Below, piece after piece: positions 712-7,002 of a stretch of DNA of 7,002 bases. The DNA is from a virus (Duplodnaviria; Heunggongvirae; Uroviricota; Caudoviricetes): the IMG/VR virus record IMGVR_UViG_2778261498_000010, positions 1 to 7,002 of that record. One strand, 5' to 3'. Made by a program: the position numbers and the translations under genes. The first letter of the stretch is position 1, and each line of letters begins with the position of its first letter. The notes beneath the pieces were generated by a model. It had not been told where the DNA came from, ran no database searches, and saw only the letters and a list, made by a program, of their open reading frames with translations.

Positions 712-1323
712 ATGAAGATTTTTTTGGAGAATCTTTATCATTCTGATTGCTATTTCCTGCCGATAAGAGATAACCAGCAAGACCTTGTCGGCGTTGAGTT
801 AATTACCCATTTCTCCAGTGAAGATGGTACGGTTCGTATACCGACGAGTCGGGTTATAGCGCAACTTACCGAGGAGCAACATTGGCAATTATTTTCTGAG
901 CAGTTGGAATTGCTAAAATCATGCCAACACTTTTTTATTCAACATAAACTCTTTGCCTGGCTTAATTTAACCCCGCAAGTGGCTACTTTATTATTAGACA
1001 GGGATAATTACGCGGGCGAACTATTAAAATATCCGTTTATTGAACTGTTGATTAATGAGAATTACCCGCATCTCGATGAAGGAAAAGATAATCGCGATCT
1101 TTTTTCCTTATCGCAAATGTATCCCCTTGTGTTAGGTAATTTGGGCGCAGGCAATAGCACAATGAAAGCGGTTTTTGATGGTCTTTTCACCCGCGTCATG
1201 CTGGATAAAAGTTTTATTCAGCAACAAATCACGCATCGCTCCTTCGAACCGTTTATTCGTGCGATCCAGGCGCAAATTTCCCCATGTTGCAATTGCATCA
1301 TCGCGGGGGGCATTGATATGTAA
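712..1323 (+). CDS. ydiV: EAL-like (degenerate) anti-FlhD4C2 factor YdiV; the ORF closes at 203 codons, apparently short at the C-terminus
   Basis: ORF with RBS-like GAGGGA 8 nt upstream of the ATG. Translation recognised as YdiV (degenerate EAL domain, IIAGGID in place of the usual AEGVET-type block). From memory the E. coli protein is ~237 aa, so ~34 C-terminal residues including the expected QG-containing end motif are missing from this frame. Synteny nlpC then ydiV is as in E. coli. Confidence 0.8.
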   Translation: MKIFLENLYHSDCYFLPIRDNQQDLVGVELITHFSSEDGTVRIPTSRVIAQLTEEQHWQLFSEQLELLKSCQHFFIQHKLFAWLNLTPQVATLLLDRDNYAGELLKYPFIELLINENYPHLDEGKDNRDLFSLSQMYPLVLGNLGAGNSTMKAVFDGLFTRVMLDKSFIQQQITHRSFEPFIRAIQAQISPCCNCIIAGGIDM

Positions 1324-1354
1324 CTTCGCGTTTTTTTCTGGGCTAATTGGCGCG

Positions 1355-1396
1355 CAATTCTGGGCGGAGAGAGCGCAACCAAAAAGCCCAGAATTG
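1355..1396. repeat. 11-bp perfect inverted repeat (caattctgggc / gcccagaattg) with 20-nt spacer; a third copy of the 8-mer ttctgggc lies at 1336-1343
   Basis: Seen directly. It sits in the interval between the end of the ydiV reading frame and the invertase stub. Confidence 0.5.
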
Positions 1397-1433
1397 GACG
1401 CTAAATTATTAGTCTCATACTGATGATTTACCC

Positions 1434-1529
1434 TCAAAAAATCAGCTCATATCCTGCACAGTTCAACGCATTGCGTTGTAAATCGGTGTTCTGGTCATTT
1501 GTTGATGCGCGTACATAGCCTATAAACAT
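1434..1529 (-). pseudogene. Serine invertase (Pin/Gin/Hin/Cin family) N-terminal stub: 31 codons then TGA
   Basis: Minus-strand translation from the ATG at 1529: MFIGYVRASTNDQNTDLQRNALNCAGYELIF*. It matches the extreme N-terminus of Din-family invertases, including the catalytic Ser context GYVRxSTxDQ. No downstream frame continues the family sequence. The ORF is below the six-frame track threshold, so it was found by hand. Confidence 0.8.
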
Positions 1530-1583
1530 GGTAGATCACCCTGACAAAAGCAGGAATGATGCCATTTGCTCGCTATTTCTGCC

Positions 1584-1609
1584 TTTTCATAAACGTTGGT
1601 TTGGGAGAA
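1584..1609. repeat. Right inversion crossover site (hix/gix-like, 26 bp)
   Basis: Read on the minus strand: TTCTCCCAAACC-AA-CGTTTATGAAAA. It matches the left site in 22 of 26 positions; the inner half-site and AA core are identical. It lies immediately upstream of the invertase stub start, as gixR lies before gin in Mu. Confidence 0.7.
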
Positions 1610-2095
1610 GGCTCTGCATTACCTGTTGGTGTCCCTGTTCCGTGGCCTTCAGCCACTCCGCCAACAGGCTGGCTGAAATGCAATGGTGCAGCTTTTTCTG
1701 CTGAAGAATACCCGGAACTGGCAAAAGTTTACCCGACAAATAAATTGCCTGATTTACGTGGTGAGTTTATTCGTGGCTGGGATGACGGGCGGGGGATTGA
1801 TACAGGTCGCTCTATTTTAAGTATTCAGGGGTATGCAACGGAGGATCATGCTCATGGATTACCGTCAAGATCCACGATTGTGACTGATGCAACGATTAAT
1901 TTCTATTTTGATGAAAGCTGGGTAAATAGTGGCACTGACATTATCAAAAGAGGAAACACAAACGATGCCGGATTACCAGCACCGGATTATGGAACCTTTA
2001 AAACATATAAACAATCAGTGGCTGGTTTAGGTGCCGCAGCCTCAGAAACGCGTCCGCGTAATATTGCATTTAACTATATCGTGAGGGCAGCCTGA
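1598..2095 (+). CDS. Alternative side tail fibre C-terminal cassette (S'v-type, tail-collar-like receptor-binding domain); promoterless, in the OFF orientation
   Basis: Coding begins in frame at the inner half of the right crossover site (NVGLGE). Tail-collar-like motif GWLKCNGAAF..YPEL...LPDLRGEFIRGWDDGRG. The six-frame track extends the ORF to 1556 (ATGATG), but those codons lie outside the invertible segment in the invertase promoter region and are probably not a real start. Stop overlaps the Tfa' start (TGATG). Confidence 0.75.
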   Translation, partial: GLGEGSALPVGVPVPWPSATPPTGWLKCNGAAFSAEEYPELAKVYPTNKLPDLRGEFIRGWDDGRGIDTGRSILSIQGYATEDHAHGLPSRSTIVTDATINFYFDESWVNSGTDIIKRGNTNDAGLPAPDYGTFKTYKQSVAGLGAAASETRPRNIAFNYIVRAA

Positions 2096-2697
2096 TGCAT
2101 AAAGCAATATTAAATAGTGAGCTCATTGCAACAAAGGCAGGGGATGTTACCGTTTATAACTATGATGGTGAAACACGGGAATATATTTCCACTTCAAATG
2201 AATATCTTGCCGTTGGTGTCGGCATTCCGGCATGTTCCTGTTTAGATGCCCCTGGCACACATAAGGCTGGTTATGCAATCTGCCGTTCTGCAGATTTTAA
2301 CTCATGGGAATATGTGCCAGACCATCGCGGTGAAACGGTCTATAGCACCAAAACAGGAGAATCAAAAGAAATCACCGCTCCGGGTGATTACCCTGAAAAT
2401 ACAACCACTATCGCCCCATTAACGCCATACGATAAATGGGATGGTGAGAAATGGGTGACCGATACTGAGGCACAGCATAGCGCCGCAGTAGATGCAGCAG
2501 AAGCACAGCGCCAGTCGCTGATTGATACTGCAATGGCTTCCATCAGTCTGATTCAACTGAAATTGCAGGCCGGACGTAAACTGACGCAGGCAGAAACAAC
2601 CCGGCTTAACGCTGTGCTGGATTACATTGACGCGGTGACGGCAACAGATACCAGCACCGCGCCGGATGTCATCTGGCCTGAACTGCCGGAGGCGTAG
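2095..2697 (+). CDS. Tail fibre assembly protein Tfa' (chaperone for the alternative cassette)
   Basis: 200-codon ORF whose start overlaps the cassette stop. C-terminus DTSTAPDVIWPELPEA is typical of the phage tail-fibre assembly (Tfa/U) family. Resembles e14 TfaE from memory. Confidence 0.85.
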   Translation: MHKAILNSELIATKAGDVTVYNYDGETREYISTSNEYLAVGVGIPACSCLDAPGTHKAGYAICRSADFNSWEYVPDHRGETVYSTKTGESKEITAPGDYPENTTTIAPLTPYDKWDGEKWVTDTEAQHSAAVDAAEAQRQSLIDTAMASISLIQLKLQAGRKLTQAETTRLNAVLDYIDAVTATDTSTAPDVIWPELPEA

Positions 2698-3109
2698 GCC
2701 ATTCAATATCTGGCGCACCGGAAGTATCGACCAGTTCCAGTGCGTCCAGGTAATCCAGCCACAAATTATATTGCGCCAGTTCGTCACCTTTCAGACGACC
2801 AATAGCCGCTTTACCAGGCCATTGTTTACTGTTCATATAATCGTTGGCCTGATTAATCAATTGCTGCTTCTCCAATTCGGCTGCAGCAATTTGTTCCTCA
2901 TGTGTTGGTGGTGGAATTTCAGACCATGCAGGAAAACCATTTTCTCCAGCGATACGGATTTTTCCTTTCGGCGGTAATCCGGAAAACTCAATATACACTT
3001 GCTCATCAACTTCAACAGCATCATCTGGCCATGAGTCAGCTTGAGTGTAATCCTCTTTCATCTCCAGCGGATAGAAAGAGTTTGTAGTCGCGGAATATAT
3101 GTAATTCAT
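2669..3109 (-). CDS. Tail fibre assembly protein Tfa (chaperone for the currently expressed fibre)
   Basis: 146-codon ORF with RBS GGAG 8 nt upstream of the ATG at 3109. N-terminus MNYIYSATTNSFYP and C-terminus DTSGAPDIEWPTPP are Tfa-family hallmarks. Its 3' end overlaps the convergent Tfa' by 29 bp. Confidence 0.85.
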   Translation of the reverse strand: MNYIYSATTNSFYPLEMKEDYTQADSWPDDAVEVDEQVYIEFSGLPPKGKIRIAGENGFPAWSEIPPPTHEEQIAAAELEKQQLINQANDYMNSKQWPGKAAIGRLKGDELAQYNLWLDYLDALELVDTSGAPDIEWPTPPAVQAR

Positions 3110-3130
3110 TTTTCACTCCATATAGCTAAA

Positions 3131-3775
3131 TTAACAGCCTAACGCTAAAAATGAAGCGCCGAGGCCAGGAGTACTGGCTCTGGATATAAATTTAACCGGG
3201 TCGGGACTAAAACCTGCACAGGCAATATAACCAACAGCCCCGCTATCTGGTGTGTAGTCTTGTGAGACCAAAACACGCAGACATCTGTTTGGAAATGCAA
3301 TCGGGAAATGGGTTACTACATCCTGTGCAATGCCTGGTGCGCCGATTGAGCCCCACTGAAGAATAAAACCTGATGGTAATTTTTGATATCCAGTACCTGA
3401 AACAGAAAGCGTGAAGCTACCCATATCAGGTATCTGATTCGCCCCTGTCCCTACATTCCTTTTAGCCGCTTCTCCCAAACCAAGGTTTTTGAGAGCCGTG
3501 TTCACCGTGCCATCCGATTTGATATCGCCAAACGGATTCTTGCGGCTTAACAGCAGCGCACGAAGCGCGGTAAGTAGCTGATCCGTTTTTTGGGGGTCAG
3601 GTTGAATATGTGCACTACCAAGAACATTAAGGAGTTCCTGCTGTAAATCACGGGTTGCCCCCTGCTGATTATTTAAATAATCAGCAGTTACGATGGTTCC
3701 TTCTATCCCCTGAGTGGGGTCACCATCATGAAACAATTGATCCGGTGTATTTATCGGGGGCATCAGATTTTGCAT
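3131..3775 (-). CDS. Side tail fibre protein (Stf): constant N-terminal ~98 residues plus currently fused variable C-terminal domain
   Basis: 214-codon ORF; the start ATG overlaps the upstream gp48 stop (TAATG). The left crossover site lies at codons ~94-102 (ALKNLGLGE). Size and position resemble e14 StfP. Followed by Tfa. Confidence 0.8.
3470..3495. repeat. Left inversion crossover site (hix/gix-like, 26 bp) inside the fibre gene
   Basis: Plus strand TTCTCCCAAACC-AA-GGTTTTTGAGAG. From memory this closely resembles hixL (TTCTTGAAAACCAAGGTTTTTGATAA) and gix. It is in inverted orientation relative to the site at 1584-1609. Confidence 0.7.
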
Positions 3776-4347
3776 TACTGCTCCTCCTTATATGTGAAAT
3801 GGCAATAAGTAAAAGCGGGTTTAAGGTCTTTAAATGTTTCTTCCAGTACAGGGGCACCAAAGGAAAGTAACGGTTCCCCGGCTGCAGATACTCCGGTTCT
3901 GAATCTGTAAGCTGGCGTTTTGCTTCCTGTGACATTAACCTGCCAAATCCATCGGGCATCTGTTATATAGAGACGATCACCACATCGGTTTACCCCCGTT
4001 CTGAATGGATGGAGTTCAGTAATTGTTATGGTGTACCCGAGGCTGACTGCAAGTTGTTTAAAATAAGGGATAGATAACCCACCAGTTGCAGCCATCTTTA
4101 TAAGAATATTTTCTCGGCGTTCCTGCTGTGTGGCACCATCGCGGGGTATTACTCCATACACTCGTTCCCAGTCAGACAGCGTCATGGATGCGTAAAATGG
4201 TGTGACAGATGCGAGCACTCGTGCAGCTGACGCTTTTACTTCATCCATAATGGCTGCTTCTGCGTTCAGTTCTGCTGAAATATATTTCCCGTTCGGGTCA
4301 TAGCTGACCGGTGGTAACATGGCACGAAATAAATCAACCGTATTCAT
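3775..4347 (-). CDS. gp48/YmfQ-like tail protein (DUF2313-type), upstream partner of the tail fibre
   Basis: 190-codon ORF between the baseplate J-like gene and the fibre gene, the position occupied by ymfQ in e14 and gp48 in Mu. GGAG-containing RBS. Family assignment from memory of YmfQ-like proteins. Confidence 0.7.
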
Positions 4348-4350
4348 GTA

Positions 4351-5430
4351 TTAACTCTCCCGGGGAAATGGCTGGATATCAATACTCCCCGGACGCAGCC
4401 ACTCCCATGTGGATTCATTGACAACTGCTTTTACATTATCTGACGGCATAATAATCCGCCGATCACTGACGCCAGAAATTAATGAAATCTGAGTTTCCAG
4501 TTGTGAAATAATTAATTCCTGCCCCGGTTCCAGTCGGTTCATAAAATCCGTGATAACTTCAGTTATCTGTGGTTTTATCTGTTCAACAGTAAGGCCACTG
4601 GTTTTTATTCTGACAACAAAATCAACGTTTTTTTTCGTTGGTGCCAGTACCATTGTATCCTTCGCCGTTACCGGGCGGACATCATTGATATGGGCCATCA
4701 CCGCGTTAATCAGCTCCTGTGACGGTAAATCATTTGCAGAAGTGATAACCACATCAACCGTACCGGGGCCACGACGTAACGGCTCCACGTATGCAGAGGT
4801 AACACCGTCAACTTCCAGCGCCCAGCGTTTGTAATCATATTTATTACCGCCAGCGGGCGGCCTGCGCAGAATATCCAGATAACGCGCCAGCAGGCCGGCG
4901 TCACTTTCCCTGTCCGTTCCGCCGGTCAGGGATTTAATCGTCACCGTGCTGTTGATGCCTTCCGGCGGGCTGACCAGCGTTGCCGTCTGCGTCGTGGATG
5001 CATTCGTCTGTGCACCCGTGGCGGTGCTTTTTACCGTCACCTCTGCGCTGCCTTCATCACCGATGGTGCAGTCTGCTGTGGTGGCCACGCTGACACCTTC
5101 ACCACGAATTTCCGCACCGGCTGGCAGCGTCTTACCGGGTGCGCCGGTAATCACTACCGGACCGGATGAGGCCGTTGCTTTTTTACGAAAAACATTGCGC
5201 GTACGACAGTGCAGCTCCAGATATTCAGGGTCAGCCGTGTCAGGAAACACCTGACGGAGGATCCATCCCTGATGCATATAAAGTCCGTCCGCCACGCCGG
5301 ATACGGCATTTGCACGAATGCGGTAATCGCTGTCAGCGCTGGTGTCGATGGTTTCTCCCGGCAGGGCGTTAGCGATATCACGTAGCTGGCGTTCTGTGTT
5401 TTCAGCAACGCCCGGAACAGGAAACGGCAT
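4351..5430 (-). CDS. Baseplate J-like protein (Mu gp47 / P2 gpJ family)
   Basis: 359-codon ORF with size, position and sequence character typical of baseplate J-like wedge proteins. Start overlaps the upstream gp46 stop (TAATG). Confidence 0.8.
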   Translation of the reverse strand: MPFPVPGVAENTERQLRDIANALPGETIDTSADSDYRIRANAVSGVADGLYMHQGWILRQVFPDTADPEYLELHCRTRNVFRKKATASSGPVVITGAPGKTLPAGAEIRGEGVSVATTADCTIGDEGSAEVTVKSTATGAQTNASTTQTATLVSPPEGINSTVTIKSLTGGTDRESDAGLLARYLDILRRPPAGGNKYDYKRWALEVDGVTSAYVEPLRRGPGTVDVVITSANDLPSQELINAVMAHINDVRPVTAKDTMVLAPTKKNVDFVVRIKTSGLTVEQIKPQITEVITDFMNRLEPGQELIISQLETQISLISGVSDRRIIMPSDNVKAVVNESTWEWLRPGSIDIQPFPRES

Positions 5431-5780
5431 TACATAATCCTCACAGGGTGTTCAAATGTCTGCGGTGTGCCCGCGTTATCCGTGACGGTGATTAACAGCA
5501 ACAGCCAGCCGCGCTGACCCGGTTTCGTGTCAACAGTAATGGATTTTGCCCGCCCGTCATTGAGCAGGGGCTGAAGTGCCTGGCTGGCATACTGCGCCGC
5601 CAGCCAGTGAACACGGGAAACGTCTTTTTCCCGCTTCAGCTCGTGCAGGCGTGACCCCAGCAACGCATCCGCCCAGTAACTGCCAAGCGGTGTCGCCAGT
5701 CGCAGATAAACCGCGTTATGGAGTGTGTAAATCCGGCGGCGTTCGTAGTCGCCGGTTGCAGGTGAAATCGTCTGGTCCAT
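5430..5780 (-). CDS. Mu gp46-like small baseplate protein
   Basis: 116-codon ORF between the V/gp45-like and J/gp47-like genes, the conserved position and size for gp46-family proteins. Confidence 0.65.
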   Translation of the reverse strand: MDQTISPATGDYERRRIYTLHNAVYLRLATPLGSYWADALLGSRLHELKREKDVSRVHWLAAQYASQALQPLLNDGRAKSITVDTKPGQRGWLLLLITVTDNAGTPQTFEHPVRIM

Positions 5781-5833
5781 GCCGCCAGTCTGGCAGCATG
5801 GACAGGTCAGAATCAGGTGAGGGTGTTCAGCAC

Positions 5834-6487
5834 TTAATTAACCGGCGTGTCAGACATGCCGTGTGGGGTCGGGTGTTTGTGCGTTCCGATTTTAACGCCA
5901 TTAATGGTGACGTCAACGGAGGTAATCACACCGCTTGTGTGGTTGATGTTGCCTTCAAAGGTGGCGGCGTATTCATTACCTCCACGGATGGCCATGCCAC
6001 CGTTGCCGGTGATTTTGCCTTCCACCGTCAGCCTGTTGCTGGCTGTCAGTAACGGTGTCGTGAATGCGGCGCTTTCCTCTGCCTCAACCTCATAGCGTTT
6101 GCATTTCACGCGATAAACATCACATTCATGCTCAATAACCCGCCCGCGCTTCAGTACGATTTTCGCGCCTTCATCGGTATACAGGGCCACCTCGCCGGGT
6201 TTCAGTTCCGTCAGGCGATATGCGCCGTGCTCGGTGGCCACGACGACGGTATGGGAGGTATTACCGTTCAGCGGAACAGCAATACCCATTGAACCGGGCG
6301 GCGGGGATGTGGTGAGGCCGTAATGCTGAAAATACTCCGCACCGTCCAGCTGTTCGCCTGCCAGCCCGTTCAGCTGGAGAAGCTGTACTTTGGTCGAACT
6401 GTCCACCGTACCGGTCACCACCCTGAATGCCTGGCGAACGGCGACCAGTGCCTGCTGTATGCGCTGATTAACCTTGTCCCACATCAT
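5834..6487 (-). CDS. Baseplate assembly protein V / Mu gp45-like (baseplate spike)
   Basis: 217-codon ORF. C-terminal ...GVKIGTHKHPTPHGMSDTPVN and central beta-rich region are typical of the gpV/gp45 spike family. Start ATGATG overlaps the gp44-like stop. Confidence 0.75.
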   Translation of the reverse strand: MMWDKVNQRIQQALVAVRQAFRVVTGTVDSSTKVQLLQLNGLAGEQLDGAEYFQHYGLTTSPPPGSMGIAVPLNGNTSHTVVVATEHGAYRLTELKPGEVALYTDEGAKIVLKRGRVIEHECDVYRVKCKRYEVEAEESAAFTTPLLTASNRLTVEGKITGNGGMAIRGGNEYAATFEGNINHTSGVITSVDVTINGVKIGTHKHPTPHGMSDTPVN

Positions 6488-7002
6488 TTCTCCCAGACCT
6501 TAACAATGGCGACCTCTTTTTTCTTTTTGCCCCTGCGGTGATGGCGTTTCTTCTCGCGCGGGAAGGCGTCAGGTATCCACACGCCGTCCTCCTTAAAGCG
6601 AAGCCGGGTTGTCTGCCCGTTCCGGCCTCCGCTGAACTCACGCCCCATCAGGAAAAAGATGGCATCAATGCCGTGGAGTTCGCTGACAATCCGCACCCGC
6701 TGACCGGGCTGCCACAGAACACCATCTGCCGTGCGATGACCTGCAACCAGTGCGACGATATCCAGCCCCGACAGGCGGGCATCACTCATCATTTTTTTTG
6801 CGCGCCAGCTCACCTGCTCCAGATTGCTGGTGTCGCCCTGGGTGATAATCTGCGGGCGGTAATAATCCACGGTGGGGTCGGTGGCCACGGCTTTCATGTT
6901 ATGAATGCCTGTCTGACCACTGTCCGTATTACCGCTGTCCTGCCCGGATAATGTGCGCACGCTGCCGTCCTCGTTCCAGATATCCAGCGGCACCACGGCC
7001 AC
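6484..7002 (-). CDS. gp44/gpD-like baseplate hub protein, C-terminal part only (5' end beyond the window)
   Basis: Open frame running to the window edge with no start inside the window. Its position immediately upstream of the V/gp45-like gene matches the Mu gp44 / P2 gpD slot. Assignment rests mainly on gene order. Confidence 0.55.
   Translation of the reverse strand: MAVVPLDIWNEDGSVRTLSGQDSGNTDSGQTGIHNMKAVATDPTVDYYRPQIITQGDTSNLEQVSWRAKKMMSDARLSGLDIVALVAGHRTADGVLWQPGQRVRIVSELHGIDAIFFLMGREFSGGRNGQTTRLRFKEDGVWIPDAFPREKKRHHRRGKKKKEVAIVKVWEK

Follow-up and report, generated by a model that had tools for sequence, protein, structure and literature searches.

A truncated invertase gene with a predicted Fis enhancer beside an invertible tail-fibre segment in a Mu-like prophage lineage

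The Din-family recombinases Gin, Cin, Pin and Hin act on one another's sites and enhancers, as classical genetics established. In phage Mu, which carries the G segment and Gin, the genes run in the order baseplate gp45-48, fibre S, chaperone U, inverted U' and S', invertase and right end, with one crossover site within the fibre gene and the other a short way upstream of the start of the invertase gene. Mu's Gin is full length and is followed by com and mom. The P segment of e14, a defective lambdoid element at a fixed site, is served by a working pinE but can also be inverted in trans, at the repeat TTGGTTTGGGAGAAGG, by PinQ of the Qin prophage (PMC12529663), a recent natural case of trans-complementation. 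In Salmonella, Hin controls a promoter and not a fibre gene fusion. The hin enhancer is embedded in coding sequence near the 5' end of the invertase gene, with hixL, the nearer crossover site, about 100 bp away. It is 65 bp long, has 15-bp Fis cores at both ends and carries ATTTA and TAATG between the cores (PMC3798978).

We analyzed a stretch of 7,002 nucleotides (the window), which forms the last 7,002 bases of the draft contig NLVE01000066.1 (GCA_002510335.1); this contig ends inside a prophage. The window follows the Mu gene order, its crossover sites are placed as in Mu, and its host element is likewise a phage that transposes and encodes A and B proteins of the Mu type. However, where Mu has a full-length Gin followed by com and mom, the window has ~110 nt of invertase gene and neither com nor mom before the end. 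The ends also lack detectable attR similarity. What remains of the invertase gene is a 31-codon stub. Compared to e14, window positions 1437-2773 are 96.3% identical to the K-12 pinE-stfE-tfaE-tfaP region and the repeat TTGGTTTGGGAGAAGG is identical. As in e14, the segment would be flipped by the recombinase of another prophage, but this help is optional for e14 and would be obligatory here; moreover, the stub-bearing element is a mobile Mu-like phage. Compared to hin, the same layout of two end Fis cores with A/T tracts between them is predicted at the homologous codons of the stub. The hin enhancer also codes for a live gene, whereas in the stub the coding role is gone and only a cis role is possible. 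Finally, classical cross-complementation among Din recombinases was a laboratory complementation of mutants, while here a natural, spreading lineage appears permanently dependent on it.

The left part of the window is host DNA. Positions 1-1318 are colinear with the nlpC-rflP (ydiV) region of K-12 (97.5% identity), and the alignment ends exactly at 1318. On the plus strand, this part carries nlpC (1-465), an NlpC/P60 lipoprotein gene that matches Pfam NLPC_P60 (E = 1e-34) and is colinear with K-12 nlpC, and rflP/ydiV (712-1323), which encodes an anti-FlhDC factor and which, by K-12 alignment, is truncated by the prophage. Past 1318, K-12 continues with unrelated sequence: the break falls inside rflP codon 203 and prophage DNA starts at 1319. 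The rflP product is 203 aa long versus 237 aa in K-12, with its last codon and stop supplied by prophage DNA. In place of the 35 C-terminal residues there is one Met followed by a stop, a truncation that might alter flagellar regulation in this strain. An independent Logan assembly (run SRR3987537) matched the window up to 1348, confirming the host/prophage junction. That assembly breaks at 1348, 30 bp into the Mu-like end, and the end sequence could be repeated elsewhere in that genome. The rflP/prophage junction was found in none of 5,426 complete E. coli genomes, and a scan of the GTDB species-representative genomes returned nothing for this junction or for the joint between the stub and the end.

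The stub occupies 1434-1529 on the minus strand (ORF 1529..1434) and reads MFIGYVRASTNDQNTDLQRNALNCAGYELIF, then TGA; it was assigned by ORF translation, gene alignments, Pfam and 15 relative loci. It matches Pfam Resolvase over profile positions 2-28 of 145 (E = 4.6e-4), a match that stays below the gathering score owing to the very short ORF. Window 1437-2100 shows 94-98% DNA identity to annotated pinE/recombinase 5' ends and the neighbouring segment, and Mu gixR plus the gin 5' end align with the stub region without gaps at 68% identity. A first-pass annotation, made from the sequence alone, had read a Pin/Gin-type N-terminus on this strand from 1529, and the translation and alignments agree with it. 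The N-terminal motif GYxRVSTxDQ appears in the stub as MFIGYVRASTNDQ, with V8 changed to A; it includes the catalytic serine, which is not enough for activity. Compared to a full-length Din-family ORF (about 180-200 aa, with a complete catalytic domain, helix E and a C-terminal helix-turn-helix), only 31 of about 190 codons are left; the stub therefore lacks the greater part of the catalytic domain as well as helix E and the whole DNA-binding domain. The invertase gene is dead.

We aligned the stub with two intact invertase genes of P2-like prophages and with Mu gin. The TGA results from a +1 T at 1436-1441, where the stub has the run TTTTTT (ATTTTTTGA) versus TTTTT in the intact genes (ATTTTTGAG). 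Past the TGA, invertase homology runs ~15 nt further (GAGGGTAAATCATCAG), to about window 1420, and repair of the frame gives only 6 more codons before the homology stops. The same annotation had found no downstream frame that continues the invertase, and indeed we detected no continuation past the joint in any frame of the window. A programmed frameshift rescuing the stub ORF was considered and rejected because homology stops 6 codons after the repaired frame.

The joint between invertase and Mu-like end lies at about 1414-1419. By alignment to intact genes, invertase homology runs out in the region 1415-1433 (minus strand), whose final ~15 nt of homologous DNA follow the stop and are out of frame; matches to intact invertase genes begin at window 1419, 1424 or 1437. 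The first-pass annotation had the gene cut where phage-type sequence meets host-type sequence. This is not where it ends: the stop comes from the added T, homology reaches ~1420, host DNA ends at 1318 and 1319-1414 belongs to the phage. The joint sets the 5' end of an invertase gene against the prophage's own Mu-like right end, and a whole lineage of mobile phages has inherited it.

We read 1319-1414 as the probable transposase-binding right end of a Mu-like transposable prophage, based on insertion diversity, invertase-less relatives and repeats. It begins with TG (TGTAACTTCGCG...) and adjoins a different host gene in each genome examined. It contains (A/T)TTCTGGGC motifs at 1335-1343 and 1357-1365 and, inverted, at 1386-1396, and its 12-mer AATTCTGGGCGG recurs at the left end of the E2348/69 and 20KM0223N prophages. 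These repeat motifs are presumed transposase-binding sites. In Z1323CEC0011 and AVS0151, the ~96-bp end adjoins unrelated tail genes without any invertase remnant, and homology to the window ends at 1414 and 1413, respectively. Alignment of the right end (~120 bp) to Mu attR gave no meaningful similarity; the assignment therefore rests on insertion-site diversity and on the repeats common with the left end.

Relatives that have the Mu-like end and the baseplate genes but no invertible segment also exist. In AVS0151, homology to the fibre of the window begins inside the crossover-site repeat (window 3477), which suggests that fibre modules may be swapped at or near this repeat. In INPHARED, we found no close isolated phage: the baseplate region had only two ~68% matches over about 240 bp, and the Mu-like end only two partial matches at 80-83%. 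The first ~85 bp of the end are 80-83% identical to OQ243220.1 (phiSTEC1575-Stx2k, 44660-44743) and KU052038.1 (SerU-LTIIb, 8889-8970); the SerU-LTIIb match sits under a 'side tail fiber' annotation.

A repeat search located the two crossover sites of the segment. The site beside the stub (gix/pix-like) spans 1585-1610 with core TT at 1596-1597, and the second, found also by simulated flip, lies within the fibre gene at 3469-3494 with core AA at 3482-3483. The 24 nt at 1587-1610 are 92% complementary to 3469-3492, and the core dinucleotides are inverted (TT versus AA). Positions 1596-1611 are the published inverted repeat of the e14 P segment, TTGGTTTGGGAGAAGG (PMC12529663). Both sites had been described as intact from the sequence alone, and the complementarity, inverted cores and identity to the e14 repeat bear this out.

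The segment between these sites encodes two alternative fibre ends. In the present orientation, the minus strand carries a 214-aa tail fibre (3131-3775; Pfam Gp53-like_C and translation), with a constant part at 3484-3775 and a variable part at 3131-3481, and an expressed tail-fibre assembly gene of 146 aa (2669-3109; Pfam Caudo_TAP, E = 1.5e-37). The plus strand carries a silent alternative C-terminal part with a tail collar domain (1598-2095; Pfam Collar, E = 4e-15) and a silent TfaE-like assembly gene of 200 aa (2095-2697; Pfam Caudo_TAP, E = 5.5e-33). Each variable fibre part is thus followed by its own Caudo_TAP chaperone. A simulated flip fused the constant N-terminus (about 101 aa) in frame to the collar part and gave a product of 267 aa versus 214 aa now; both orientations are in frame and yield alternative products. 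The rest of the window (3775-7002, minus strand) contains Mu-type baseplate genes, recognized by Pfam Phage_Mu_Gp48, contig Pfam labels and identity to E2348/69: gp48-like (4347..3775), gp47/J (5430..4351), gp46/W (5780..5430), gp45/V (6487..5834) and a gp44-like gene cut by the contig end. In E2348/69, which has a complete Mu-like prophage, the baseplate region matches that of the window at 95% identity.

We then considered the Fis-dependent recombinational enhancer, which the first-pass annotation had suspected to be partly or wholly lost. By positional homology and hin geometry, a complete enhancer is predicted at 1445-1508. The proximal Fis-like core (GCATCAACAAATGAC) lies at gene nt 22-36 (window 1494-1508) and the distal one (GTGCAGGATATGAGC) at gene nt 71-85 (window 1445-1459); both are G...C 15-mers. 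Between them, the stub has the A/T tracts ATTTA (nt 47-51) and CAATG (nt 57-61). The centre of the proximal core is 95 bp from the crossover core. In alignments of Mu gin with Pin-type genes, the enhancer blocks were the best-conserved stretches. The proximal core agrees with the loose Fis consensus in its A/T content and its outer G/C, but not beyond these. A Din-type enhancer was defined as two Fis sites about 48 bp apart in cis, and the assignment draws on positional homology and on a geometry published for hin, which is a different sequence. On these grounds, the whole ~64-bp enhancer is predicted to lie within the 93-nt stub (gene nt 22-85, codons 8-29), and the suspected loss is not borne out. 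The annotation had proposed aligning the 5' region with gin, pin and hin. Alignment with gin and Pin-type genes predicts that both Fis-like cores are kept; for hin, the comparison was made through published geometry. As all stubs derive from one joint, the enhancer could have been kept through the chance position of a deletion endpoint and not through selection.

We searched complete genomes for the end together with the stub (window 1310-1445, at least 80% coverage) and found it in 20 of the 5,426 complete genomes of E. coli. All 15 of the E. coli loci that we fetched have this 31-codon ORF, ended by the identical stop. Together with the window and GCA_013048125.1, these 15 loci represent 13 distinct insertion sites: eutC, scpC, hyfB, mhpT, near melA, an RHS region, yeiP-yeiQ, near pta, near sstT, a molybdopterin oxidoreductase gene, near pphA, rflP/ydiV and near an arc-type operon. 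The GCA_013048125.1 copy (AATPJR010000028.1, locus 2774-8457) differs from window 1319-7002 by 3 mismatches in 5,684 bp (99.95% identity) and has the same stub and the same segment orientation. It lies at another chromosomal site, beside an arginine deiminase/carbamate kinase/ornithine carbamoyltransferase cluster. Similarly, the tcmA_3/E423 and GF75/MEI148-20EC prophage pairs are each 99.97% identical at different sites. With near-identical copies at different sites, the stub-bearing phage has moved recently and is not a decaying remnant.

Complete relatives of the prophage, 95% identical over the window's backbone, show what lies outside the window. The E2348/69 and 20KM0223N prophages encode a Mu-type transposase A and a B-type AAA ATPase, and they are complete Mu-like elements that also have a repressor, a Ner-like protein, Mor, and head and tail genes. 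The elements occupy many unrelated sites and have TG...CA termini; the right end is always TGTAAC and the left end TGTGGGG. In the two prophages checked, the flanking target duplications look 4 bp long (AGTG in E2348/69, TCAG in 20KM0223N) versus 5 bp in Mu. SfMu was considered as a member of the family and rejected: its gin and mom are both intact, and it is a genuine relative of Mu.

Some stub prophages depart from the common form. OkiPb01676 has the same joint on a different tail module; its stub is 88.5% identical to that of the window and is nearer to live invertases (L2, V8, C27). Given this divergence, the joint is either old or has been overwritten by gene conversion. In 160-11H1 (fetched locus 3741-4879), the segment is decayed, with frameshifted chaperone fragments on one strand. 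In 47-1826 (fetched locus 3739-6386), the segment is longer, with crossover sites about 2.3 kb apart and an extra tail-protein gene, and is possibly a multi-cassette variant.

We wondered whether the switch still flips, since the first-pass annotation had held it to be probably frozen. In 20KM0223N and MEI148-20EC, the prophage occupies one and the same yeiP-yeiQ site, and the two were compared over 7,127 bp. The flanks are 100% identical. The 1,874-bp segment is 100% identical as well, yet lies in opposite orientation in the two strains, and the aligned blocks overlap by 15 bp at the crossover sites; this is an exact inversion in otherwise identical stub-bearing prophages. The segments of E2348/69 and tcmA_3 are 99.7% identical and in opposite orientations. 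Over 12 insertion contexts, orientations split 6:6, scored by whether the TfaE-like gene lies beside the stub or on the far side, and two segment types are near-identical (99.7-100%) in both orientations. The four E2348/69-derived assemblies have one orientation throughout and are uninformative; flipping is thus not evident in every case. For the window's own segment, we found no copy in the other orientation among close relatives, GCA_013048125.1 included; its segment type is inverted in TUM1881 only at 92-93% identity and over part of the length. Contrary to the annotation, stub prophages exist in both orientations, and by these comparisons the switch is not frozen in the stub-bearing lineage.

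The source of a recombinase can be sought in the same genomes. A P2-like prophage of 20KM0223N encodes an intact invertase of 197 aa, and its crossover site is essentially identical to that of the Mu-like prophage. MEI148-20EC also has an intact invertase, and the P2-like prophage's own segment is flipped between the two genomes. In E. coli, counting matches that cover at least 80% of the query and include the invertase 5' end, 339 genomes have an invertase-linked copy of the window's segment in one orientation and 167 genomes have one in the opposite orientation. Such copies being common, a helper invertase is likely in any given strain, presumably including the window's own host. The annotation had offered flipping by an invertase supplied in trans as its alternative, and the comparative data favour it, with intact invertases in both flipped genomes. 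The segment is best read as competent in cis and dependent on a trans invertase; catalysis in trans on intact cis elements would be the simplest account.

The stub might instead be inert and the segment locked in this genome, with no compatible invertase available. The stub cannot encode a recombinase, and the shared orientation of the GCA_013048125.1 copy and the single orientation of the four E2348/69-derived assemblies would fit a locked segment. However, stub-bearing relatives flip and are evenly split over insertion contexts, the cis elements are all intact (the crossover sites, and the enhancer as predicted), and the abundance of invertase-linked copies makes a helper likely in any strain. 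We regard a locked segment as unlikely. Alternatively, opposite orientations could arise from RecA-dependent recombination, either between the inverted repeats or by cassette swaps via the stub and the constant fibre arms. Cassette content does vary on near-identical backbones, with at least three segment types. PCP06173 has an invertase-linked segment to which that of the window is 99% identical, while the window's backbone is 95% identical to that of E2348/69; cassette exchange between prophages has therefore happened. Yet in the 20KM0223N/MEI148-20EC pair, where the segment and both flanks show 100% identity, the breakpoints lie within the 15-bp overlap at the crossover sites, which is the product expected of conservative site-specific inversion. 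Both genomes have an intact invertase with the same crossover site. RecA acts very poorly on inverted repeats of 15-26 bp. General recombination is thus a quite improbable source of the opposite orientations.

The annotation had also named a condition that would overturn its reading: a stub that proves to be an assembly artefact. In the form considered here, errors of assembly or of sequencing would have shortened a full-length invertase gene. The window does come from a draft assembly with a contig end inside the prophage, and the stop depends on the length of a homopolymer. However, correcting the T-run adds only 6 codons before the joint, and the same joint is found in the 20 complete genomes, which come from many laboratories, and in a second draft genome. 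NCBI annotation records a partial gene in the relatives. The stub lies >5 kb inside contig NLVE01000066.1, the host/prophage junction is present in the Logan assembly, and the stub is identical in the 15 loci. An artefact is scarcely credible.

Overall, we think it likely that the stub is an inherited relic of a Pin/Gin-type invertase gene whose cis elements were kept and whose segment is flipped in trans. The relic sits at the right end of a Mu-like phage, a copy of which inserted in rflP/ydiV. A single ancestral event would have joined the invertase gene, after roughly its first 110 nt, to the ~96-bp transposase-binding end, with loss of the rest, and a +1 frameshift now closes the ORF at codon 31. 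The remaining cis set comprises two inverted crossover sites with matching cores and the predicted ~64-bp Fis enhancer (codons 8-29), kept at its native distance of ~95 bp from the nearer crossover site. We infer that this enhancer functions and that the catalyst acts in trans: the 1.9-kb segment, unable to flip itself, would be flipped by a compatible invertase of a co-resident prophage (e14, Qin or P2-like). In each orientation, the constant fibre N-terminus would receive a different C-terminal receptor-binding part along with its own chaperone.

A broader reading is that a spreading Mu-like lineage without an invertase or mom of its own keeps the cis half of the switch, uses the invertases of unrelated co-resident prophages to vary its tail fibres and retains the stub as regulatory DNA and not as a pseudogene in decay. 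We hold this more tentatively, as a plausible reading that falls somewhat short of likely. The stub is perhaps also a homology arm for the capture of fibre cassettes. Din invertases, the Fis enhancer and trans-complementation are well known, and the advance is modest; in the literature searched, we found no description of mobile phages that, as a lineage, have kept the cis half alone and carry the enhancer in a dead stub.

In RefSeq, the fibre ORFs of several relatives are named 'integrase' and the stub 'hypothetical protein, incomplete'. These automatic names look misleading, and because of them the system is invisible in current annotations. A short 'partial recombinase' pseudogene near tail genes need not signal a dead switch; in the present case, it may be the enhancer itself. 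If the proposed explanation is true, this would be a natural case of one prophage needing the recombinase of another for host-range variation, and interactions within prophage communities would be directly testable.
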